Source: a virus. Taken from it: a stretch of 64,000 nucleotides of DNA. How positions within the stretch are numbered: the first letter of the stretch is position 1; the number at the start of each line of letters is the position of its first letter. The translations under genes were made by a program, and so were the position numbers. Below the pieces are notes generated by a model. The model made no database searches, was not told the DNA's origin, and saw only the letters and a list, made by a program, of their open reading frames with translations. The stretch is from the IMG/VR virus record IMGVR_UViG_2822706143_000001; one strand, 5' to 3'. This document shows positions 27,092-53,154 of the stretch, one piece after another.

Positions 27092-28294
27092 TTACAAATT
27101 TAAATTTGAGAATACTGATTTTTTTATTGGTTGTTGTCCTGGTGTAACTTCTTCATCTGGATCTAAACCTTTACGGATAGAAGCAGCATTTTCGATATTT
27201 TCAATTCGCTTTGTAATTGGTTCTAATGCTTTTTGAATAACTGCTGCAGCTTTTTCTTCCTCTGTTTGCTCTTCTGGCGTCGGTTCTACCTCTTCACCAT
27301 TCACCTGTTTTTCAATCTTTTCTAACTTAGTAGCTAGTGGTTCTACTGCTTGTTTAACAATCTCTGCAATATCTTCTGCTTTCATTTCATCTTCCTCCTG
27401 TGGTGAAGCAGCTTCTTTTATTTCAGTAATTAAAGCTAATGCTTCATCTAATTTTGTATGATTCTTTTGGGATAATACTTTACCCGCTTTTTTAATACTT
27501 TCTAAAACAATGCTTTCTGCTTGTACACTGTCTTCTGATTTCGCAATGGTATAACCACCTTTAATAGAAGAAAGTATGTCCTTCATATCATCAAGAGCAG
27601 CTACCATACGATCGATATCGGGATTACTTTCCCAAATCTCCCAATAGAACACATCTTCAAACAAATTAAAGACAGCTCGTAAATCACGCTTTTGTTTTTC
27701 ATCAATAAAGCGGTCTTTTACTTCGCCTTTTGTGATTTTGTGAGTTTCACCTTTAACGAAATCTAACATCTTTCGAATAAGGCCTTTATCTTCATGAGTA
27801 AAATCATCAGTCTTGGCGATTTCTACTCGTTCACCAAATCCACCCATAGAAAAACCGGTAACTTCACCTTTTTTAATTTCTTCCCAGGTGTCTGCATCAT
27901 CAACACGAACAGTCATAAGCCATGTTCCTGCTTGTACTTCTTGTTCGCCTACTGTCATATCACTTTTAGCAATCCAGTTTTCAACAACTGTCCCTTTACC
28001 AGCGATTTCATCATGTTGCTTGTCAATGTGTTGGTAATTCTCCATAAAGGTATAAGCAGCCTTTTCAATTTCTTCTGCTGTCATTTTATCCCCGTGTGAA
28101 TCTTCTACATCAGGTTCATATACTACACCTGTAACAAGCTGCTTCTCTTCCTCTGTTTTAAGGATTGGAACTTGCTTTGATATATTTGGTTGTTTAGCAG
28201 ATTCGCTTTTCATAATGGCGAATTGACGACCATTAGCGCCTTTTGTAACTAATGAAACATAGCTGATATTGGCGTTTTTTAGTTCGTATCCCAT
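27092..28294 (-). CDS. XkdF-like prohead protease with C-terminal scaffold
   Basis: ISYVSLVTKGANG, VYEPDVEDSHGD, GEVTGFSMGG. Confidence 0.88.
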   Translation of the reverse strand: MGYELKNANISYVSLVTKGANGRQFAIMKSESAKQPNISKQVPILKTEEEKQLVTGVVYEPDVEDSHGDKMTAEEIEKAAYTFMENYQHIDKQHDEIAGKGTVVENWIAKSDMTVGEQEVQAGTWLMTVRVDDADTWEEIKKGEVTGFSMGGFGERVEIAKTDDFTHEDKGLIRKMLDFVKGETHKITKGEVKDRFIDEKQKRDLRAVFNLFEDVFYWEIWESNPDIDRMVAALDDMKDILSSIKGGYTIAKSEDSVQAESIVLESIKKAGKVLSQKNHTKLDEALALITEIKEAASPQEEDEMKAEDIAEIVKQAVEPLATKLEKIEKQVNGEEVEPTPEEQTEEEKAAAVIQKALEPITKRIENIENAASIRKGLDPDEEVTPGQQPIKKSVFSNLNL

Positions 28295-30588: not shown

Positions 30589-31866
30589 CTACATTCTTTT
30601 AACCTTTCCACCCATAACTACTTTACGTTTACTCATATCGTCCTCACATGCATAACGAGTCATATCGATACTATGATTGTCCTTATCTTGTAATCTGTTT
30701 TTCGGATTACCATCTTTATCAACTTCATAATCAATATTTTCAAATTCACCTGCAGTTTTTGGGCAACGCTCAGGATCAATTATGATTTCTACTAAATCAT
30801 CTAACCATTTTTCTCCGTATTCAACAGAACCAGGCCCTTTAATTGCACCCTTGATTTTCTTAATATCATGATCGTTTTTCATTTCATCGATTGATTTTGG
30901 TTCAGAAGAATCCGCAATTATTTCAACATCATCCCAGCCGAGTTTCTTTATCTTTTCAGCTAATGAACGATTACTGATTTTAACACCATGTATTTCACCA
31001 AATATATAAAGCTTCCTGCGTGTTTTGTCATAATGCATACGACCAAAAGACAGCGCGTCATTCCCATAACCCCAGTCAATTCCTTGACGTATAGTATCAA
31101 ATGTTTTAATTTCTTTATCTGTAATACGTCTGAATTTAAGGTTACTAAATGGAACAACACCACTGCCTGTCGGTTTCCCTTCATATTCATGTTCGTATTG
31201 CTGCGGTTTCAGCCTTTTCGTTTCTTCTGCTTCTTCTACAAACTGCTTAGAAATATGCGGGTTATCATGGTATGTACTATGATGTACAAATGTATTCTTT
31301 GGTCTGAATTGCGTTTCAAACTTCTTATTAACCCAGGATTGTTTTCTCTTCGGTGGGTTGTATGAGTAATACATTTTATATCGCAATCCATTCGGTAATT
31401 CTTTACGCAAAATAGATTTTTCTATTGTAGAAACATCTTCTTCTAATTTAAATTCGGCCAATTCTTCAAACCATGCAATAGCAACTGGATATTTTGCTAT
31501 CTTAATAGATTTGATTTTTGCAGGGTCATCAGCGCCACGGAATATCATTTTGTTTCCACGCGGCTTATAAATGATTTCCATTGGACTTTCTTTAAAACGA
31601 AATAAATGCTCTACACCTAGTATTTCTATAGCTTCTTTTATTTGCTCATAGCAAGATTCCCTTATTGTATCCTTTACTTTACGTATGCAAAGCACTGTAA
31701 TAGGAAACTGAATAAGATCCATAACAATACAAATGGATATATCAGTAGATTTACCCGAACCACGCCCGCCTTTACAAACGATTTTTAATATCGATTCACA
31801 TTTACGAGCTAACCAAACTTGATGAAATGCCGGTGGCAGTATTTCACCGATTTGCTTTTTAGACAT
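30589..31866 (-). CDS. terL: Terminase large subunit (PBSX family)
   Basis: Walker A GGRGSGKS, WFEELAEF, SYNPP, GIDWG, DNHSIDMTRY. Confidence 0.95.
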   Translation of the reverse strand: MSKKQIGEILPPAFHQVWLARKCESILKIVCKGGRGSGKSTDISICIVMDLIQFPITVLCIRKVKDTIRESCYEQIKEAIEILGVEHLFRFKESPMEIIYKPRGNKMIFRGADDPAKIKSIKIAKYPVAIAWFEELAEFKLEEDVSTIEKSILRKELPNGLRYKMYYSYNPPKRKQSWVNKKFETQFRPKNTFVHHSTYHDNPHISKQFVEEAEETKRLKPQQYEHEYEGKPTGSGVVPFSNLKFRRITDKEIKTFDTIRQGIDWGYGNDALSFGRMHYDKTRRKLYIFGEIHGVKISNRSLAEKIKKLGWDDVEIIADSSEPKSIDEMKNDHDIKKIKGAIKGPGSVEYGEKWLDDLVEIIIDPERCPKTAGEFENIDYEVDKDGNPKNRLQDKDNHSIDMTRYACEDDMSKRKVVMGGKVKRM

Positions 31867-38214: not shown

Positions 38215-38757
38215 TTAGATTTTAAACCTAGTCATTGCTTTATCCATTTCATCTTGATTTACACCTATATAACGTAATGTGACCTTCTCTGACGAGTGAT
38301 TGAATATCTCCATGAGTAATGCTATGTTTTTCGTTTGCATGTACATATGATACCCGTACGTCTTTCTTAGCGTATGTGTTCCTATTTCATCTAATCCGAA
38401 CTCTGCTGCGGCTATACTTAATATCTTATATGCCATGCTGCGACCGATAGGACGATTCTTCCCTTGTCTACTTTGTAATAAATACTCATTATCTTCTCTT
38501 TCTTCAATGAACCATTTAAGTTCTCTTTTTAATGCTGCAGTAATTTGAATACGTTTTTGTTTTCCTGTTTTCTTTTCCCTCATAGAGATATGGCTGCCTT
38601 TGACATCACCTACTTTTAATTTCAAAATATCTGATATTCTAAGACCTGTATTAATACCCATAATGAAGAGAATGTAATTACGTAAGCTCTTTTCCTTAAA
38701 ATACTCTTTTAGCTGCTGTATTTCTTCTGGATCACGTATTGGCTGAACAAAATTCAT
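38215..38757 (-). CDS. Small tyrosine recombinase (catalytic domain only, 180 aa)
   Basis: GLRISD (R), KTGK (K), THTLRKT (HxxR), NHSS (H), LRYIG (Y). Confidence 0.92.
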   Translation of the reverse strand: MNFVQPIRDPEEIQQLKEYFKEKSLRNYILFIMGINTGLRISDILKLKVGDVKGSHISMREKKTGKQKRIQITAALKRELKWFIEEREDNEYLLQSRQGKNRPIGRSMAYKILSIAAAEFGLDEIGTHTLRKTYGYHMYMQTKNIALLMEIFNHSSEKVTLRYIGVNQDEMDKAMTRFKI

Positions 38758-39239
38758 TATTCATTACCTCCAGTCTCTTCTGTCTCGTAAACTTCTAATC
38801 CAAGTGCAAAAGCAAGCTTATAAAAAGCTTTAGACTTCCAACGTCGATAAGTACGCTCTGACATTCCGATTTCGTTATAGACCATGTAATCACATACATC
38901 CTCTTCTTCTAAATAACGTTTATAAATAATATCCCTTTGAATACTTCCAGCACGTCCGTTTCCTAATCGAGTTAGAAACTGATCAATACGTACTGACATT
39001 CTCTCAAGCCACTCTTCTCGTTTACTTTGTTGAATATTCGCTATAGCAACATCTTCTAACGGTTTTCCGACTGCATGTGTAGGACCATGCTCACGTATTT
39101 CATAAGAAGGAGTGACCTTCATTTCTTTACGCATCATCCCGAATTGTCTATGTATACGTATACTTTCCAACACGCCTTCTAATTCCTCTTGGGTTGCCGT
39201 TCTATCGATTTTTGGTAAGAAAGATAATTGTTTAGTCAT
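38757..39239 (-). CDS. ArpU-family late (packaging/lysis) transcriptional activator
   Basis: IIYKRYLEE..CDYMVYNEIGMSERTYRRWKSKAFYKLAFAL. Confidence 0.9.
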   Translation of the reverse strand: MTKQLSFLPKIDRTATQEELEGVLESIRIHRQFGMMRKEMKVTPSYEIREHGPTHAVGKPLEDVAIANIQQSKREEWLERMSVRIDQFLTRLGNGRAGSIQRDIIYKRYLEEEDVCDYMVYNEIGMSERTYRRWKSKAFYKLAFALGLEVYETEETGGNE

Positions 39240-39785: not shown

Positions 39786-40390
39786 TAGACTGTCACTCCT
39801 ACTACAGCATTTTCATATGTTATTGTGTAGCCGCATCTTTTCGGTTGTAAGCTCATTCATTTTATTTCTTAAAAACCTTCATGAAGTATCCTGCACTACA
39901 CACTCCGAGGAAAAGCGCTGTTCGAAGGCGCTCTTTTTTATCCTAATAATATTCACGATTTTGTACATACTACTCATAAGCTGCTTTCTTAACAGTGTTT
40001 GCAGCCCGGAACCTTTTTTAGGAAAAGGGGCAGTTAGCTTTTGCTAGCTGCTCCTTTTGATTTGCATCCCAACCATGAATGCAGTAGTTATATAAACTTC
40101 CATCAATATGCTCTGTACGTCCGTTGTATGTAACTTTTGTCCCACAAACTTCATTAACTTCTCGGACACTGCTTCTTGCTGTAAAAACATCATCTTAGTT
40201 TGCGAGGTAAATATAGAAGTGCCCTAATCCTGTATTACGGACCATCGCTTTTCCTTTGCAATCTTTCTTCAATTTACTTCTTAATGTTTCAATGTACATC
40301 TATTTCACCACTTTTCTACAAAATGAAATTTTTATATACATAAATACCTGACTAAATACCTAAAATAATTAAAAATTTAGGTGGTATTCA

Positions 40391-40486
40391 ATGAAAACAG
40401 CACTCACGATCCTTAAATATTTATTAATTACACTAGGAATTACTTGCTTAATTATTTTAGGTTACATATGGTATTTTCCACATTAA
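40391..40486 (+). CDS. 31-aa single-TM peptide
   Basis: MKTALTILKYLLITLGITCLIILGYIWYFPH; AGGTGG RBS. Confidence 0.7.
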   Translation: MKTALTILKYLLITLGITCLIILGYIWYFPH

Positions 40487-41372
40487 TTCAAATAGCGTTT
40501 TGTTCAAATTAACGACCATAAAGTCGAACATATTTACCAGTATTTTTACCAATAAATTCATGATTACCTTAAATTTTTTTCGCCTTTTAATTGGACAGGC
40601 ATATGATGTTTTATGGAGGCATCCACTTATAGCAATCTACCTTTCTTGTCAAAGGGCATACTTATATGTGTGCTCTTTTTGTTTGTTATGAAGAAACGCT
40701 TTTGTTCACATTTCTGATACATTTATGAAACTTCATGTGTTATCTTTAATAAGTTCTTTAACTACAGAAAGATTTATTATGTAAAAAGTCCTAATCCCCT
40801 CTAGGGCTTTTTACATTGAAATAACGATTTTATAATTCATCAACATCTTCATGCCCGCGTAATACATCTGTAAACATTACTGAATTTCTTGCTTTTCTCA
40901 TTTCCCATGTGACACAACCTTTTATTGAGCGCTAGGATCAATCCTAGCCTTTTTTACGCAAGATAAAGATTTTATTTAAACTCGCACCTACACCAAAAAC
41001 ATACATACAATATTATGGGTATTCTTTTTCAATATTAGTTTTGGTCAGAGCGTCTTTCTCTCAAGGCGCTCTTTATTCTTTAATGACAGGCTCCATAACT
41101 CCAAGTAAGGCATACAATATTCAAAATTCACTCGTAAAAATCTGATTACGATTTTCTGAATTTTTTATATTTCATGAGACATTCACATACCTTACTAAGG
41201 GTGCATATAAAAATGCGCTCTTTTTGGTATGGAATGTGAAATAAAGGCTTGCTCTTAAAACCTTTTATATAATTATTGTGGGGCGGGTTCCTTACACCAG
41301 TGTGTCTGTTTACTCATAAGTTGTTAAAGTATAAATATAAATTGTTAGTTAATTTATAAGGGAGGTGTAAAA

Positions 41373-42671
41373 ATGAGTAAATTTAAAAAGAATTGTCACA
41401 TACCCTTTCCATGTGCCTTTCCTTTACCTCAAATCGGGTCTACTGGATTAACTGGTGCTACTGGACCTTCGGGACCTACTGGAGCTACCGGACCTTCAGG
41501 TGGACCTCGGGGACCTACCGGGCCTACTGGAATTCAAGGTAGCCTGGGACCTACTGGGCCTCAAGGTATTTCTGGACCTCAAGGGATTCCTGGGATTTCT
41601 GGATCTATTGGTCCAACTGGACCTTCTGGAATCCAAGGTATCCAAGGTATCCAAGGCATTCCTGGCATTCAAGGTCCTATTGGACCCACTGGAATAACAG
41701 GGGTCACTGGAATTCAAGGGATTCCTGGCATTCAAGGGATTCAAGGGATTCAAGGGATTCCTGGTCCGACCGGCCCTCAAGGGATTCCTGGCATTCCTGG
41801 TTCTGTAGGTCCAACTGGACCTTCTGGAGCTGTTGGACCTACCGGCCCTTCCGGGGGACCGCCAGGACCAACGGGCCCGACTGGACCTTCTGGGGGACCA
41901 CCAGGACCAACCGGAGTGACTGGCCCCACTGGACCTTCTGGGTCACCAGGACCAACCGGACTTCAAGGTATTCAAGGTATCCAAGGCATTCCTGGCCCCA
42001 CTGGACCTCAAGGAAGTCAAGGGATTCAGGGGATTCAAGGTAATCCGGGGCCTATTGGTCCTACTGGAATAACTGGGGCGACTGGAATTCAGGGTATCCA
42101 AGGTATTCAAGGTAATCCGGGACTTATTGGACCTATCGGCCCGACTGGCCCAACTGGGCTTCAAGGTATCCAAGGCATCCAAGGCATTCCTGGGCCTACT
42201 GGATTACCAGGAACCGCTGGAGCTACCGGATCTACTGGACCTACCGGACTTACAGTATCTGGGTTATCTCATTATGCTTATGTTTTCAATACAGCAGCTC
42301 AAGTTGTTGCCTTAGAAGCACCTATTCTTTTTAATTCACATGGTAGAATGACATCTGGTTTTACTCATACACTGGGAACTTCTCAATTAATGGTTCTTAA
42401 TGCAGGAGATTATAAAATTTCTTTTTCTGTATCAGGAGTTGAGCCTAATCAATTCACACTTTTTTTAAATGGTGCTCCGGTTACCAGCGCAGTTTATGGA
42501 TCAGGTGCAGGAACTCAACCAAACAACGGCCAAACAATCCTCGCTTTAGCTGCAGGTGATATTATTACCCTTAATAATCATACTTCCGCTGCTGCAGTTA
42601 CTTTGCAAACTTTAGCAGGTGGAACACAAACAAATATAAATGCTTCGATTGTAATTGAAAAGTTAAATTAA
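41373..42671 (+). CDS. BclA-like collagen protein with C1q/TNF-like C-terminal domain
   Basis: About 90 Gly-X-Y triplets (GPT, GIQ, GIP); C-terminal YAYVFN...[20 protein letters not shown]...NASIVIEKL. Confidence 0.9.
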
Positions 42672-43219
42672 TTATTTCTTGAAGCTCTGGCATTCAATAA
42701 TCTAGAGGGGATTCTTTTTTCAACAAGTAGTTAGCATTAGCGATTCATTGTCACATTACGATGAAATGGTCATATATTATTTCGAAGCAAGAAACCCTAA
42801 TCTACTTTTCAACATTTCACTTTTTCCCTAAAGAGCACCGTAAGTAAGTGCTCTTTTCTCATGGAATAAAAACTTGTCGCATTTATACCTGACAAGTATA
42901 CGTTATTGTATGGAGACTCTCCACTCATGGAAATCTACCTTTCTTGTCTCTGAGCACGCTTATATGTGTGCTCTTTTTCGCTTGTTATGAAATAAAGATT
43001 TTGTTTAGAATTTGCACATACGTTAAAAATACACATAGGATATATTGTTACCACTTTTCGATATGAGCCTTGGTCAAAGAGTGCTTTCCCGGGCGCTCTT
43101 TTTATGTTTAAATAAAGATTTTGTTTTACTTTTGCTAGCTACCCTTCCCTTGTATAAATGCACCTTTTTTTACATACCATATTAAAATCCAAATAATTCT
43201 CTTTTAGGACGGTACTAAT

Positions 43220-43312
43220 TTGAACAAGACATTAAAATACATTTTAATCTTCTTTTGTGCGATGTATTATATTGTAATTATTGGCTGTATTGTCTATCTA
43301 AACTTTGTTTAA
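43220..43312 (+). CDS. 30-aa single-TM peptide (possibly nonsense-truncated)
   Basis: TTG start with AGGACGGT RBS; MNKTLKYILIFFCAMYYIVIIGCIVYLNFV. Confidence 0.55.
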   Translation: MNKTLKYILIFFCAMYYIVIIGCIVYLNFV

Positions 43313-43555
43313 GAGCATTTTATTCCTCCAAGCAAGAAATCAATCTAAGAACGAACATAAGCATTTATAATTAGGCATAAGGAGCGCTCCACAAGGCGTT
43401 CTTTAGCTTTAAAATAAGAATTTTATAAAAAAATGCTCACTTTCAATTCCTCTATTTCCGTCATTTTGATTCTACCTTCCCCCTTATAACAAGATGAGCT
43501 CCTTTGTTAACCCTATAAAAAACAACCTAAATATGGTAAAATTTAAATAAGGTAG

Positions 43556-43867
43556 GTGAATATAATGAGTGGATTTGTAGTTTGCACACTTGTTAGTCTA
43601 ATCGTTGTAATAATGGGTTATCTGATTCATATTAAAAAACAATTATTTCTTATTGCTGGATACCAAGATGCTAATTTTATTGGTGATAAAAATAAACTAG
43701 CTAAATTACTCGGCATATTTGCTTACATAGTAGGAATTGCTACTTTTTTACTACCTTTCGGACTTGAATTTTTCGGCGGCATAAGTGGCAAAATCTATGC
43801 AAACTGTGTTGTTGCAGGCACAGTTTTTGTTTTGGTTAGAGAACAAATGATTAATAAACCTTTTTAA
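43556..43867 (+). CDS. DUF3784-like membrane protein
   Basis: KKQLFLIAGY motif, three TM helices, own terminator at 43868-43893. Confidence 0.75.
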   Translation: MNIMSGFVVCTLVSLIVVIMGYLIHIKKQLFLIAGYQDANFIGDKNKLAKLLGIFAYIVGIATFLLPFGLEFFGGISGKIYANCVVAGTVFVLVREQMINKPF

Positions 43868-43924
43868 AAAGAGTCTTAATACGGCTCTTTTTTATTGATA
43901 AAACTAATTCAAATAACTATTTTG

Positions 43925-44527
43925 TTATAAAGTAACTGCTTCTGCTGCCGGTTTGCTTTTCTCTAATTGTTCAATTGCCATTTGCAATCCTAACCAGTAA
44001 CCAATTAAACGACGTGGCAACCTTTTACCGAAATTCCAAATGTCTTCCAACGTGTCAGAATCTAAGGAGCTGCTATGATAAACGTCACTTAACCAAAAAT
44101 GGTAACCTTCCATAGATGAACTCTCATCAATTGCTGAAATAATACGATCATATACTTCCTGTCCGTCTTCTCTTGTTTCGTTTATATCGTAGTCCTTCCA
44201 ATATTCATCAAGTTCCCTTTTTGCCTTTTCTTCATCAAAATTCCAACGTTCTTCACAAAAAGCCGTTAACTTTTCAGTAAAATACCCTAAATTGAATCCT
44301 TTAATATTTTCTAATGTTGCTGGACATGTAAGGTTATACACCGCTTCGCCAATATCCCCTGAAATAAATACGTTATATCCTGCAAGAACAAATTTAGTAC
44401 GATACATATTTGTTCCAGGCTTGCCCCAATAAACAACCTGTAACCCTTCTTCACCTTGAATTTCAGCTACATGATCTACAAACCAATTCTCTCTAATATC
44501 TTTAGTTGCTTTTTCAACGTATTCCAT
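43925..44527 (-). CDS. Phage early hypothetical protein
   Basis: RBS GAGGGGG; bounded on both sides by the 15-bp motif. Confidence 0.75.
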   Translation of the reverse strand: MEYVEKATKDIRENWFVDHVAEIQGEEGLQVVYWGKPGTNMYRTKFVLAGYNVFISGDIGEAVYNLTCPATLENIKGFNLGYFTEKLTAFCEERWNFDEEKAKRELDEYWKDYDINETREDGQEVYDRIISAIDESSSMEGYHFWLSDVYHSSSLDSDTLEDIWNFGKRLPRRLIGYWLGLQMAIEQLEKSKPAAEAVTL

Positions 44528-44724
44528 TTTTCATTTCCCCCTCTTTGTATTCAAATAACGCTTTTGTAATAAATTCTCTTAATAAAATCCTCTTGTTACA
44601 ATTATCCCTTCAATTAAAATTACTTCCTATGAGCCGTGCCCCCTTAATAAAAACAAGCATCTAATAAGGTGAAGTATTTTTATATTTCGATAAGTATTAT
44701 TTAACAAATGAAAGGATGTTGTAT

Positions 44725-45057
44725 ATGTGTTGTTGTACAGACCCTCAGTTTGTCTCTATTTCTACATGCAATTCTTTCACGACAACAGGAGGTGATGTAG
44801 TTGGTGGAGCTACAGTATTTAACAATACTGGAGGTCCAGTTCTTTCCGGCTATGTCACTCTTACTAATAACCCTGCAAGTGGTGCAATTACTGCCTTTTT
44901 AGCGAACAATGGTACAAATATTATTGGCCCAATAACTCCAGGTAATAGCCAAACTGTTTTTGTGTCAAACATAGGAACATTGGTTGCTTTTTCTGGCACC
45001 GCTGGTCAACCTGTTAGTGGTAGAGTTTGTGTTGAAGCTGCACGTCAAGTAGCATAG
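44725..45057 (+). CDS. Ena-like endospore appendage subunit (DUF3992-type)
   Basis: MCCC N-terminal connector; SGYV, PGNSQTV and GRVC motifs typical of the Ena jelly-roll; AAAGGA RBS before ATG 44725. Confidence 0.65.
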   Translation: MCCCTDPQFVSISTCNSFTTTGGDVVGGATVFNNTGGPVLSGYVTLTNNPASGAITAFLANNGTNIIGPITPGNSQTVFVSNIGTLVAFSGTAGQPVSGRVCVEAARQVA

Positions 45058-45150
45058 ATTGTCAGAAAAAGATATTAATTCATTTTGGATTTAATATCTT
45101 TTTCTTAATTTATATACAACGCTTATACTATTGAAATGAGGCATTATATT

Positions 45151-45561
45151 ATGAAAAAAAATTCTTTGGATTTTAAATATCTATTTCCAATACCCTGTGC
45201 TTTTCCAATACCAACCTGTGATTCATTACCAATACCAAAAGAAAAACAAAAACTTGTATGTAATGAAATTTGTGGTAACTTTCTACTTAATGACAACCCT
45301 ACCTTTCTAGAAGTTTGGGAAAAGAGAATAGAACAACCTATTACTGCTACTGTCACAGTCTTTAACAGTTTACAAGGTTCACTAATTGAAGTTAGCGTAC
45401 AACAAAGCATGAGTAAGTCCATCCTTTTCATAGTCCCTCCTGGAAATTCAATTTCCAAAACAATTGAAGATACACAATCAGTTACTATTCGTCTCTTAGA
45501 ACCTGGCAGTGCAAGCGGAAAATTCTGTTTAGATATACATTTCGCTATAAAGTCCCTATAA
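45151..45561 (+). CDS. Ena1C-like endospore appendage protein (DUF3992-type)
   Basis: LVCNEICG, VW, TVTVFN, PGNSIS, QSVT and GKFC align with my recollection of Ena1C; GAGG RBS. Confidence 0.75.
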   Translation: MKKNSLDFKYLFPIPCAFPIPTCDSLPIPKEKQKLVCNEICGNFLLNDNPTFLEVWEKRIEQPITATVTVFNSLQGSLIEVSVQQSMSKSILFIVPPGNSISKTIEDTQSVTIRLLEPGSASGKFCLDIHFAIKSL

Positions 45562-45626
45562 ATATTGAAGGGGCTTATACATACTCTCAAAACCTCTTCC
45601 TTTTTTATAATAAAATTCAAATTTGA

Positions 45627-45827
45627 TTAAAGTAACTGTGTTTTTCGTTCTTCCATACGAATTACTTTTCCACTTTGATATACAAATGATTGTTCACCAA
45701 ATCCACCTTGGGGTGGTTCTATTAGTTGGACCTGACCATTTTTAACAACATATATTCCGTTTATTTTCAAATCTATTTCAGCTGTCATTTCTTCAAGTTT
45801 TTCTTTAATAATTCCCACTAAGACCAC
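45627..45827 (-). CDS. DUF3954 / XtrA-YqaO-like protein
   Basis: NGIYVVKNG..PP..GFGEQ.....GKV.R motif. Confidence 0.75.
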   Translation of the reverse strand: MVLVGIIKEKLEEMTAEIDLKINGIYVVKNGQVQLIEPPQGGFGEQSFVYQSGKVIRMEERKTQLL

Positions 45828-45889
45828 TCCCGTATGTTATGATTATTTTGTCGAAGCAAGTCGGGAGTAATCTCGACTTTTTTATTTTG

Positions 45890-46252
45890 TTATAGATATT
45901 CCACAACATTATCGGGAATAAATGATTGTTCTAATGATAAATAAAGTCGTATTGAAATCGGTTCTTTATTATCTCTCGCAGACTTGCAAAGCTCCACCGC
46001 TTCTTCCCAATCGAACTGCTTATCTTCCACTCGCTTAAATCTCCAAATTCCAATTGTATATTCCTCAAATAATTCATACTGATCATTTGGCGCTGTTGTT
46101 GGTTTTAATTCATCAGTAGCTCTTACTTGCTTTGGTACTTGAACAGCTACATCCGTAAAACGAACTTTAGAATTTAATCGATAAATGTGTGCTTTCTCAG
46201 TATCGAATGCTACTACAGGCTCAACATCAAATATTGTTAACTGCTTTGGCAT
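45890..46252 (-). CDS. Phage early hypothetical protein
   Basis: MPKQLTIFD start; operon position. Confidence 0.65.
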   Translation of the reverse strand: MPKQLTIFDVEPVVAFDTEKAHIYRLNSKVRFTDVAVQVPKQVRATDELKPTTAPNDQYELFEEYTIGIWRFKRVEDKQFDWEEAVELCKSARDNKEPISIRLYLSLEQSFIPDNVVEYL

Positions 46253-46262
46253 TACAATCCTC

Positions 46263-47240
46263 CTAAGCCTCTTTTTTATATTTAGATAACACTTGTTCTA
46301 AACGTTTCCGTTCAGCTTCTAATTCGATTTCACTATGCTCTACTGACTGAGAATGTGTTTCCGTATCTTGAGTATGTAACCAATCAGGAACAATTTCTTT
46401 TCGAGCATTACTACTCCCACCACGAGACTGGTATTTCTTACGGAATTGAGTTTGTGCAGCTTCAACATCAGTAATACTCTTATACCCCTTAGCATGCCAA
46501 TCTCTTAAAATACCTTGTACATAAGACATATTAGGTGCATTCTTTTCTAAAGCTATTTTCATTGCTTTAATAACAAGCTGTGCATTCAAATCTTCAATCC
46601 ACGCATTAATCCCTTGAGCCACAAATGGTTTAAGAACTCCAAAGTTTTGCTCATAAAATGCTATTGGATTTTCTTCTGCAACTTTTTTATCTCTTGAGCA
46701 GCTTGCTGCTTCTTTTTTTGTTTTTGTTTCTTCTTTTTCTTTTGTTTCTGTTTTTGTTTCTTCTTTTTCCTTGATAGGGTCTTCGAAGCCCCTTATAAGC
46801 CACTCAAAACGAGCTTGGAAGTATTCCTTAATACGAGGAATTTTAAAATCTTGCTGCTGTTCTAAATCTAAACATGTCTCATAAAAATCAATTAAAAAAT
46901 CTTCACACTTAATATTCTGGATTTCTTTTAACACACACTTTTCAATATTCATATTTGTAATAGCATTGAATTTAAGCCAATTAATCAACATAATTTCTTT
47001 CGTCTTTTTGTTGTAATGAATTTTCCCGTAATCAGCAAACCGCTCTAGCAGCTTCTCAACCGTTTCACGGTTATACCCTGTATCCATTTCTATCACTCGT
47101 AATGGAAGCTCATAGATACCACTCTGAGAAGTTTTGCTATTAGTCATTAAGTATAAGTAGAAGTATTTCTCCTCCGGTGTAAGATCTAAAACGAAAGCAT
47201 CTTGCCAATATGAAACTTGAACAGGTCTATAAACTGCCAT
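46263..47240 (-). CDS. Phage replication initiator (DnaD/DnaB_2 domain)
   Basis: LTPEEKYFYLYLMTN N-terminal wHTH; FYEQNFG...YVQGILRDW DnaD domain; probable start MAVYRPV. Confidence 0.9.
   Translation of the reverse strand: MAVYRPVQVSYWQDAFVLDLTPEEKYFYLYLMTNSKTSQSGIYELPLRVIEMDTGYNRETVEKLLERFADYGKIHYNKKTKEIMLINWLKFNAITNMNIEKCVLKEIQNIKCEDFLIDFYETCLDLEQQQDFKIPRIKEYFQARFEWLIRGFEDPIKEKEETKTETKEKEETKTKKEAASCSRDKKVAEENPIAFYEQNFGVLKPFVAQGINAWIEDLNAQLVIKAMKIALEKNAPNMSYVQGILRDWHAKGYKSITDVEAAQTQFRKKYQSRGGSSNARKEIVPDWLHTQDTETHSQSVEHSEIELEAERKRLEQVLSKYKKEA
46700..46772. repeat. Direct repeats in the initiator gene (probable origin iterons)
   Basis: tttttgtttcttctttttc repeated (KEKEETKT x2). Confidence 0.6.
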
Positions 47241-47357
47241 ATTATTCATCCTCCATTGTTTTACTTGATTTGCTTTGATATACTTAATCCAATTCAATTT
47301 TTAGAAAAACTCTCTATAAGAGTCTAAAATCTATCACTCTGCAAAGTGATAGATTTT

Positions 47358-52011: not shown

Positions 52012-53154
52012 TTGAATATGAAAGGAAGTTTTCGTAAACGTGGAAATACGTGGTCTTTTACAATAGATATCGGTATAGATCCAACCACAGGAAAACGACA
52101 GCAAAAAAGTAAAAGTGGATTTAGAACAAAAAAGGAAGCCCAAAATGCTGCTGCAACGATGATTACAGAGATAGAGAAAGGAATATATTTTGATGACAAA
52201 CAATTAACTGTTTTAGATGTATGGGAAAAGTTAAAGCCTCTTCGTAAAGCTGAATTAAAAATTACATCTTATGAAAAAGACATGAGCTTAGTTAGGCTCT
52301 ATATCCTTCCCCCATTTAGTTATAAAAAAATTAAAAGTATTAAGCCCATAATGATTCAAAGCTACTATGCTGAACTTAAGGAAAAAGGACTATCAAATGG
52401 TACAATCAGCAATATCCACCGCTGCCTAAGATGCATTTTCAAACACGCTGTAGAATGGGAAATCATACATGATAATATAATGAATAAGGTTAAAAAAACA
52501 CGTGAAGAGCAAGGTGAGATGAAAACATGGTCCAGCGAAGAATGCAATCGATTCCTCCAGTATCTAAAAGAAAAAAATATTAAGTACCATATGTTCTTCT
52601 TACTTGCAATTTATACAGGTATGAGACGCGGAGAATTACTTGCACTAACATGGAAAGATCTTGACTTTGATAATAAACGTATCTTGGTTAATAAATCACT
52701 TGTAAAAACAGAAAAAGGACTATTTAAAGCTGCTACAAAAACTAAATCTTCAAATAGAAGCATTAGTATCTCTTCTTTTGTTATAGGAAAGTTACAATCC
52801 TACTACTCTTATAAAAAGAAAGAATTTTTCCGCTGGGGTATACACTTGAATGAAGAAGCCTTTATTTTCACCGGCAATACGATACATTCGCCCTTACATA
52901 TAGATGCTCCTCATCGGTTTTTGAATGATCACTATAAAAAAGCTGGTGTTTCTCGGATTCGTATACACGACTTACGACATACTCACGCTACACTAATGCT
53001 TCAGGCTGGGGAACACCCTAAAATCGTACAAGATCGCTTAGGACATTCATCTATTCAAATGACTTTAGACAAGTATAGTCACATCACACAGAACATGCAG
53101 CAACAAGCAGCAGAAAACTTCGAGAGCATAATAAAATCTAATGAAAACACCTGA
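52012..53154 (+). CDS. Prophage tyrosine integrase
   Basis: Arm-binding N-terminus (SGFRTKKEAQ), TGMRRGELLAL, HDLRHTHAT, RLGHSSIQMTLDKYSH. Confidence 0.95.
   Translation: MNMKGSFRKRGNTWSFTIDIGIDPTTGKRQQKSKSGFRTKKEAQNAAATMITEIEKGIYFDDKQLTVLDVWEKLKPLRKAELKITSYEKDMSLVRLYILPPFSYKKIKSIKPIMIQSYYAELKEKGLSNGTISNIHRCLRCIFKHAVEWEIIHDNIMNKVKKTREEQGEMKTWSSEECNRFLQYLKEKNIKYHMFFLLAIYTGMRRGELLALTWKDLDFDNKRILVNKSLVKTEKGLFKAATKTKSSNRSISISSFVIGKLQSYYSYKKKEFFRWGIHLNEEAFIFTGNTIHSPLHIDAPHRFLNDHYKKAGVSRIRIHDLRHTHATLMLQAGEHPKIVQDRLGHSSIQMTLDKYSHITQNMQQQAAENFESIIKSNENT

Follow-up and report, generated by a model that had tools for sequence, protein, structure and literature searches.

A repeated, oriented motif in a Bacillus cereus-group prophage

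The window analysed here is a 64,000-nucleotide (nt) stretch of viral DNA (IMG/VR record IMGVR_UViG_2822706143_000001) holding a prophage of the Bacillus cereus group whose genes lie on the minus strand. Between the replication genes on one side and the gene for an ArpU-like late activator on the other lies an array of small units, or cassettes, separated by copies of a 15-nt motif, A[C/T]AAAAnnnTTATTT when read in phage direction. Eight good copies and one decayed copy occur at 40490-44567, all in a single orientation [Table 1]. The units themselves are mostly on the plus strand, opposed to the phage direction, with one 200-amino-acid (aa) gene reading phage-wise. A first-pass annotation of this DNA, made from the sequence alone, had placed the array in the phage early operon; the region is not simply that but the accessory (moron) region that extends from the replication genes to the late activator, and most of its units are transcribed counter to the phage direction. 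As shown below by alignment to related phages, the motif is, among phages carrying different cassettes, the sole sequence in common at the boundary, and exchanges between genomes fall inside it.

The recurrence of the motif was confirmed in two ways. The exact pattern AAATAANGNTTTTRT matched four times in the 64 kb (40819, 42990, 43110 and 44553), always on the plus strand, compared to 0.04 matches expected from shuffles. Allowing up to two mismatches added the copies at 40691, 40961, 43412 and 43911, the entire window then yielding 33 matches against 22 expected. A weight matrix derived solely from 241 sites of other phages was then run on the window and returned eight sites in one orientation within 3.9 kb (40691-44567; scores 12.6-24.8), the remaining 58 kb giving only three weak matches with scores of 9-15. 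An isolated motif-like site (AAATCACGCTTTTGT, score 15), oriented as the array copies, lies in the late-gene region at 27681-27695. Three degenerate copies that had also been proposed, at 40321, 42864 and about 45609, fell below the matrix threshold and were indistinguishable from chance; the homology of relatives nonetheless ends near 40308-40318 and at 45600. The motif is furthermore not the quasi-palindrome it was first taken for, as it is asymmetric, without dyad symmetry, and has a variable centre of 3 nt.

Table 1. The motif array and its surroundings. Positions refer to the window; G001, G002 and Athena are relatives used for comparison; "matrix" gives the weight-matrix score; ORF, open reading frame.
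Feature	Position	Strand	Remarks
Large terminase	30589-31866		
Backbone downstream of array: ArpU-like late activator (38757-39239) and 180-aa mini tyrosine recombinase (38215-38757)	38215-39239	-	Pfam Phage_integrase 3.9e-23; phrog_248, phrog_216; Athena annotation
Cassette with 31-aa hydrophobic peptide ORF (40391-40486)	40336-40489	+	95% identity to G001, 40308-40492 only
Decayed motif copy, spacer one base short (AAATAGCGTTTTGTT on + strand)	40490-40504	-	Full length in G001 counterpart; G001 homology ends at 40492
Three short non-coding units (40505-40690, 40706-40818, 40834-40960)	40505-40960	+	Each closes with a + strand hairpin terminator
Motif copy, phage direction ACAAAAGCGTTTCTT	40691-40705	-	Matrix 12.6
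Motif copy ATAAAATCGTTATTT	40819-40833	-	Matrix 18.5
Motif copy ATAAAATCTTTATCT	40961-40975	-	Matrix 17.3
Composite interval: two terminator-ended non-coding stretches, BclA-like collagen gene (41373-42671), short non-coding unit (42865-42989)	40976-42989	+	Pfam Collagen 1.3e-38, BclA_C 7.6e-11
Motif copy ACAAAATCTTTATTT	42990-43004	-	Matrix 23.9; G001 homology tract begins here
Short non-coding cassette	43005-43109	+	Sigma-K/E-like -10 elements at 43017 and 43034; terminator 43076-43101; common to G001 motif-to-motif
Motif copy ACAAAATCTTTATTT	43110-43124	-	Matrix 23.5; G001 and G002 homology tracts start or end here
Cassette with 30-aa hydrophobic peptide ORF (43220-43312)	43125-43411	+	Motif-to-motif in G001 (92%) and G002 (86%)
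Motif copy ATAAAATTCTTATTT	43412-43426	-	Matrix 17.4; G001 and G002 tracts end at 43424-43434
Cassette with DUF3784 membrane protein gene (43556-43867) and bidirectional terminator	43427-43910	+	Pfam DUF3784 1.5e-7
Motif copy TAACAAAATAGTTATTT, overlapping stop codon of minus-strand gene	43911-43925	-	Matrix 24.8; Athena: same left flank and motif, unrelated right flank
Cassette with 200-aa phage-direction gene (43925-44527; phrog_5051)	43926-44552	-	Homologous to Athena gp23, which has different neighbours
Motif copy 25 nt upstream of minus-strand gene start	44553-44567	-	Matrix 23.8
Cassette with two Ena-like genes (44716-45057, 45136-45561)	44568-45626	+	Pfam Enas 1.1e-6 and 2.9e-18; G001/G002 backbone homology back at 45600-45601
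Backbone upstream of array: small genes and DnaD-like replisome organizer (46263-47297)	45627-47297	-	Pfam DnaB_2; PHROGs
Repressor-type helix-turn-helix genes	48-49.7 kb		
Integrase	52012-53154		

The first-pass annotation had each interval between motifs holding exactly one unit, which applies to about eight of the ten. The other two are the interval at 40976-42989, with several terminators (among them 41047-41072 and 41197-41222) in addition to its collagen-like gene, and that at 44568-45626, with its two Ena-like genes. The lone minus-strand gene is flanked by motif copies on either side just as had been described. The plus-strand units had been credited with a promoter and a terminator of their own, of which only the latter was borne out: terminator-like hairpins number ten on the plus and one on the minus strand (4.9 expected), usually ending 5-12 nt ahead of a motif, and sigma-A-type promoters are not enriched (19 found vs 24.5 expected).

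Several features of the individual units may be noted. The collagen protein and the second of the Ena-like (DUF3992, endospore-appendage) proteins both have an N-terminal P-x-P-C-A-F-P-x-P, and relatives hold further BclA-like cassettes with an LVGPTLPP exosporium-targeting motif (L044:4774-5421 and L072:6271-6897). Short non-coding units such as those at 40505-40960 are common in relatives. The one at 42865-42989 is a paralogue of 40622-40713 (repeats D5 and D8); the stretches 40622-40713 and 42920-43012 are 85% identical, and each combines a small hairpin with a terminator and with a CU-rich stretch, CTACCTTTCTTGTC, that is complementary to a ribosome-binding site. By sequence, both are candidate regulatory small RNAs. 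A second recurrent non-coding type carries TTGGTCA(A/G)AGAGC ahead of its terminator (41041 and 43065). The strongly hydrophobic peptides of about 30 aa, one per cassette, are possibly membrane peptides or type I toxins. A scan of the entire window with Rfam matched zero families.

Distribution, conservation and homology breakpoints among relatives

Eighty viral loci were retrieved by their ArpU protein and set in phage direction. The motif matched 269 times in phage orientation vs four times in the opposite one; matches all lay 1-7 kb upstream of ArpU, the late genes in the 10 kb downstream being free of them. The consensus in phage direction is aAAwTTaA-A[C/T]AAAA[T/G][C/A][G/T/C]TTATTT-nAwwanAAA. 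Up to nine or more copies occur per genome, and the sites occupy 241 distinct 55-nt contexts. Inspection of the whole genomes of Athena, BtCS33, Wbeta and phBC6A52 revealed clustered, co-oriented copies confined to the accessory region, the few others being isolated, weaker and of opposite orientation. In the 5-Mb chromosome of a relative, the pattern matched 16 times vs 21 for the control, seven of the 16 falling inside two prophage regions. The motif is far above background and prophage-confined, with the host chromosome at control level. When one genome per species was searched across some 185,000 species, no group but that of B. cereus showed arrays of at least three co-oriented copies, besides two CRISPR (clustered regularly interspaced short palindromic repeat) arrays; a loose two-copy pattern also matched unrelated AT-rich genomes. 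The CRISPR arrays (L193 and L144, with a 66-nt period, the latter in a metagenome-assembled genome of Cytophagales) have a repeat, ATATACAAAATCCTTATTTGAAAGCAAACCACAAC, that includes the motif, a coincidence that would mislead naive scans. A second co-oriented pair of motifs in G001, the nearest genome (C1:4647192-4647751), about 19 kb from the main array and beside a copy of the 66-aa phrog_4556 gene, probably belongs to an adjacent second prophage or remnant.

The sequences adjoining the motif are of several kinds. At 129 of the 241 sites, what comes next in phage direction is an A-run plus a stable hairpin, i.e. the tail of an opposite-strand unit; at 68 it is a ribosome-binding site with a start codon at a distance of 9-32 nt. 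The stop codon of a phage-direction ORF adjoins 106 sites, exactly so at 42, and 43 sites sit between two converging 3' ends. Matrix scores are equal among all these classes. In Athena, whose genes all run one way, the motif follows a stop codon and precedes the next ribosome-binding site. The orientation of the motif thus tracks the phage backbone and not the adjoining gene, which rules out a general promoter or translation-signal role for the adjacent gene.

Elements of another type were observed in the same arrays. Sigma-K/E-type -10 sequences (CATAnnnTA) number 242 opposite the phage genes vs 45 on the phage strand in the arrays of loci L022-L101; they peak 25-34 nt past the motif and are preceded by 'CAC' at -35 spacing. 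In the window they occur at 41004, 41111, 43017, 43034 and 43173. In some cassettes, an opposite-strand sigma-K-like promoter begins about 8-10 nt past the motif. By their sequence, the short non-coding units resemble small transcripts that are specific to the mother cell and end in terminators.

The motif itself is conserved. In a set of 118 diverged orthologous junction pairs (70-97% identity, non-independent, one partner of each having been picked for a good motif), its 11 conserved columns mismatched at 5.2% vs 17-20% for the flanks, a rate of change about 3.5 times slower. The same was seen at the sites followed by an opposite-strand tail (4.6% in the motif vs 19.9% in the flanks).

Division of the relatives' arrays at the motif yielded 272 units falling into 159 families, 93 of the units being 100-200 nt long, mostly non-coding, and closing in an opposite-strand terminator. 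Fifty-five of 56 arrays are distinct despite ArpU proteins at least 96% identical. Forty-six families recur in at least two arrays; the left neighbour varies for 36, and 24 are found with several neighbours on each side. Thirteen family pairs were found in both orders and three arrays contain one family twice. Whole motif-to-motif cassettes are common to the window and G001 or G002, and a cupin cassette and two short units of Wbeta are common, motif-to-motif, to ArpU-type phages. In this the units behave as single-gene or non-coding cassettes that can be shuffled, as first proposed. The proteins they encode include BclA-like, cupin, DivIC-like, DUF3947 and YopX proteins, a sigma-70-like factor, a DCC1-like oxidoreductase and a reverse transcriptase. 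The last, of 599 aa, is found in the array at L049:6098-7897 (RVT_1, 5.7e-39) and is probably a group II intron protein or of a defence type. The most widespread cassette family (L052:6777; 150 nt, 16 loci, with 12 left and 10 right neighbours) resembles, on its opposite strand, the 3' end of a collagen-type gene with its terminator, and some short units may be deletion remnants of bigger accessory genes. The published fosfomycin-resistance insertion of Gamma phage was not found in the Gamma-phage records retrieved.

Comparison of breakpoints between relatives, the check that had been proposed for the motif as a crossover site, gave a positive answer at single-nucleotide resolution. Within arrays, 58% of homology break ends fall no more than 20 nt from a motif, compared to 8.9% expected, and for 66% of motifs the distance to a break end is no more than 25 nt. 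Among site pairs from different loci, the left flank alone is in common for 112 and the right flank alone for 86; either way, identity is about 0.9 up to the motif and drops to background from the first base past it. The variable position 1 follows the left flank, and the central triplet in part follows either side, which places crossovers on both sides of the triplet. Between the window and G001 or G002, homology tracts begin or stop at 40492, 42990, 43116, 43424-43434 and 45600. Likewise, the 200-aa gene has in Athena the same 3' flank and motif, followed by unrelated sequence.

Explanations for the motif and its conservation

We consider it most probable, at about 0.6, that the motif is a junction (linker) element that bounds optional units and permits short-homology exchange between its copies, and that has an additional sequence-specific role. 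The linker, A[C/T]AAAA-nnn-TTATTT, lies in the accessory region of temperate B. cereus-group siphoviruses, from the replication module to the late activator, and the unit it bounds can be a gene in phage direction, a gene on the opposite strand that carries its own terminator or a short non-coding unit closed by a terminator. Exchange at the motif inserts, removes, replaces or re-orders cassettes with preservation of genome order, the fixed orientation of the motif keeping the genomes colinear. The simplest route would be short-homology recombination (break repair or copy choice) when phages that reside in or infect the same cell bring their motif copies together. The additional role would be what preserves the motif and, being indifferent to the direction of the neighbouring gene, probably consists of binding a host factor or of acting in the long phage-direction transcript.

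A number of observations weigh against this explanation. An identity of 15 to about 20 nt is short for RecA-type recombination, and neither RecT nor ERF was found in five motif-bearing phage records (Rad52/Sak, Sak4 and Gp2.5-type proteins were not searched for). The purifying constraint on the motif is unexplained by passive homology alone, and the fast turnover of the arrays relative to the backbone would fit an active sequence-specific mechanism better. About 40% of the break ends inside arrays lie away from a motif, as do those at 41217 and 42741 of the window relative to G001 and G002. Finally, gene boundaries are generally breakpoint-rich in these phages: by a crude ORF caller, a break end is present at 64% of motif junctions vs 46% of motif-less ones (odds ratio 2, p = 4e-5). 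The short length of the motif, the lack of annealing proteins in those records and the constraint speak against a patch of homology that is purely passive, and leave some room for a dedicated enzyme or for a primarily regulatory role.

A dedicated site-specific cassette system, integron-like in function, in which a recombinase or nuclease (the mini recombinase, in cis or in trans, or an enzyme of the host) would recognise the 15-nt site and take cassettes out or put them in, strikes us as rather improbable, even though much would be accounted for by it: the strict orientation (269 vs 4), the sharp exchange point, the quick turnover of arrays with their re-ordered cassettes and duplicated families, the constraint whichever way the neighbour points, and the absence of RecT and ERF from the five carrier phages. 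The mini recombinase, consisting of a catalytic domain only and encoded 1.5 kb from the array past ArpU, was the enzyme first suggested. It is intact in 79 of the 80 loci with its catalytic R, H-x-x-R, H and Y retained, and recombinases of its size (FimB and FimE) are active. Its gene overlaps that of the ArpU-like activator by one base, a pair kept in 79 of 80 relatives. Wbeta, however, has neither ArpU nor the mini recombinase and yet contains four co-oriented motifs and cassettes in common with ArpU-type phages, which speaks against this protein as the exchange enzyme; in Athena the recombinase gene is annotated as two fragments and the motifs persist. The site itself, with a 3-nt variable centre unlike the 6-8 bp overlap of tyrosine recombinases and no dyad symmetry, would seem from its sequence to misfit the known core sites of tyrosine and serine recombinases. 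It has no attC-like fold, 68 of the 241 sites adjoin a ribosome-binding site and start codon and not a hairpin, and the linkage of the triplet partly to either flank looks as if crossovers could occur anywhere in the motif. No recombinase match was obtained for the early proteins of the window. The specific proposal of a new phage-borne system, in which an enzyme would recognise the motif as its recombination site and move gene and small-RNA cassettes, many of them sporulation-expressed, between B. cereus-group prophages, is accordingly doubtful; if true, it would be a functional counterpart of the integron built on a different type of site. A primarily regulatory or structural motif, either a site bound by a host or phage protein or an intercistronic RNA element (for processing, stability or translation) of the long phage-direction transcript, with exchange as a by-product, is also unlikely, if a little less so. 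It would agree with the purifying constraint, with an orientation locked to phage transcription and, in one-directional phages, with the placement of the motif between a stop codon and a ribosome-binding site, 9-32 nt before the start; the PeSL (promoter-early stem-loop) elements of T4-type phages moreover provide a precedent for a functional signal doubling as a recombination site (PMC2839356). Against it stand the 129 sites that precede opposite-strand tails and the 43 between converging 3' ends, with scores and conservation equal across the neighbour classes, so that the motif is not the translation signal or promoter of an adjacent gene. It also has no sigma-A -35/-10 pattern and no Rfam family, no phage-encoded candidate reader common to all carriers was found, and the host chromosome does not use the motif. 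An artefact of chance or composition in AT-rich DNA, or the remnants of one duplicated sequence, might have been suspected from the AT-richness of the motif, the 33 vs 22 matches at two mismatches, and the matches of loose patterns to unrelated AT-rich genomes and CRISPR arrays; it is refuted by the exact matches (4 vs 0.04), the strand ratio, the confinement to a single region, the 241 unrelated contexts and the restriction of arrays of at least three copies to the B. cereus group, the two CRISPR coincidences aside.

More specific candidates were tried and rejected. Iterons of the replisome organizer were considered, the N-terminal domain of this protein being the only early-region protein segment common to the window and Wbeta; sites do not co-vary with this domain, for which 33 of 49 motif-bearing loci have no homologue. 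The idea of homing endonucleases found no backing in 20 representative cassette proteins, which included neither a nuclease nor a recombinase. A host regulatory site is at odds with the control-level frequency in the host chromosome (16 vs 21), and a sigma-A promoter with the missing -35/-10 pattern and unenriched promoter-like sites. A general translation signal was dismissed on account of the sites that precede opposite-strand tails with equal scores and conservation, and an UP-element or activator site for the sigma-K-like promoters on account of the 106 sites that adjoin phage-direction stop codons and of the Athena motif between co-directional genes. Comparison by eye to consensus sites (sigma-H, B, W, D, E, F, G and K promoters, CodY, CcpA, Spo0A, ComK AT-boxes, SpoIIID, DnaA, LexA and dif) revealed only a loose partial resemblance to SpoIIID- or AT-box-like sequences.

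These phages bear on the debate over phage mosaicism, which opposes exchange guided by conserved linkers to random illegitimate recombination with selection for joins at gene boundaries. With one 15-nt motif reused hundreds of times and exchange points mappable within it, the mechanism of mosaicism becomes directly testable in this family, the hosts of which are easy to grow: phBC6A52 resides in B. cereus ATCC 14579, and two classic phages, Wbeta and Gamma, are at hand. The cargo of the cassettes, including BclA-like exosporium proteins, Ena-like appendage proteins, membrane peptides, candidate sporulation-specific small RNAs and other accessory genes, means that the motif marks a route for spore-surface traits among B. 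cereus-group strains. It also offers a simple annotation marker for accessory-gene slots in their prophages.

Relation to known mosaic and cassette systems

A search of the open-access literature with the motif letters and keywords, and of one paper on the Wbeta clade, found no description of the motif. The resemblance to integrons, on which the first-pass annotation had drawn, lies in the mostly single-gene cassettes, the recurring oriented bounding site and the varied orders and neighbourhoods. It does not extend to mechanism. Whereas attC sites are imperfect palindromes of 55-140 bp that fold and have R and L boxes, the motif is 15 nt long, asymmetric and without such a fold, and the hairpins adjoining it differ in sequence, i.e. 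are ordinary terminators. In contrast to integron cassettes, which are co-oriented and mostly without promoters, those of the array occur in both orientations and bring terminators of their own. The array has no IntI-type integrase next to it, and it is inside a phage genome.

Start-associated sequences (SAS) were reportedly described by Pope et al. in 2011 in cluster K mycobacteriophages. They too are asymmetric motifs of about 13-15 nt, with many copies per phage genome in one orientation, often just before gene starts. SAS are tied to translation starts, whereas only 68 of the 241 sites described here precede a ribosome-binding site and start codon, more than half precede an opposite-strand tail, and copies coincide with mosaic breakpoints.

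The modular theory of Susskind and Botstein and the work of Clark et al. (2001) on HK620 are said to have dealt with boundary, or linker, sequences in lambdoid phages. Like the motif, those boundaries are short, conserved and placed where modules join, and either could guide exchange by homology; the position of the array, from replication genes to late regulator, is analogous to the nin region of lambda. What this theory expects of a linker, a junction sequence conserved between unrelated flanks, is what was observed in the 241 contexts, with the switch at the edges of the motif. Lambdoid boundaries are few and heterogeneous; here, in contrast, a single motif is present at nearly every junction, in strict orientation and under measurable constraint.

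For the PeSLs of T4-type phages, recombination with mini-circles has been shown, and short-homology break repair or copy choice has been argued as the route (Arbiol et al. 2010, PMC2839356; Comeau et al. 2014, PMC4122927). A PeSL is composed of a strong sigma-70 promoter and a terminator stem-loop, whereas the element described here is a bare 15-nt motif with no promoter pattern, the adjacent hairpins (129 of 241 sites) belonging to the cassettes and not being conserved. PeSL carriers are lytic myoviruses of Gram-negative hosts, and carriers of the motif are temperate siphoviruses of Gram-positive spore formers. Despite the missing composite, the location of the motif in a hyperplastic region with breakpoints inside it is that of PeSLs. 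Each is a short conserved motif that recurs between the non-essential genes of a hyperplastic region, and in both, exchange occurs at the motif between otherwise unrelated sequences, with insertion, deletion or replacement of single genes. On this comparison, the element is best read as functionally like PeSLs and the linkers of the modular theory.

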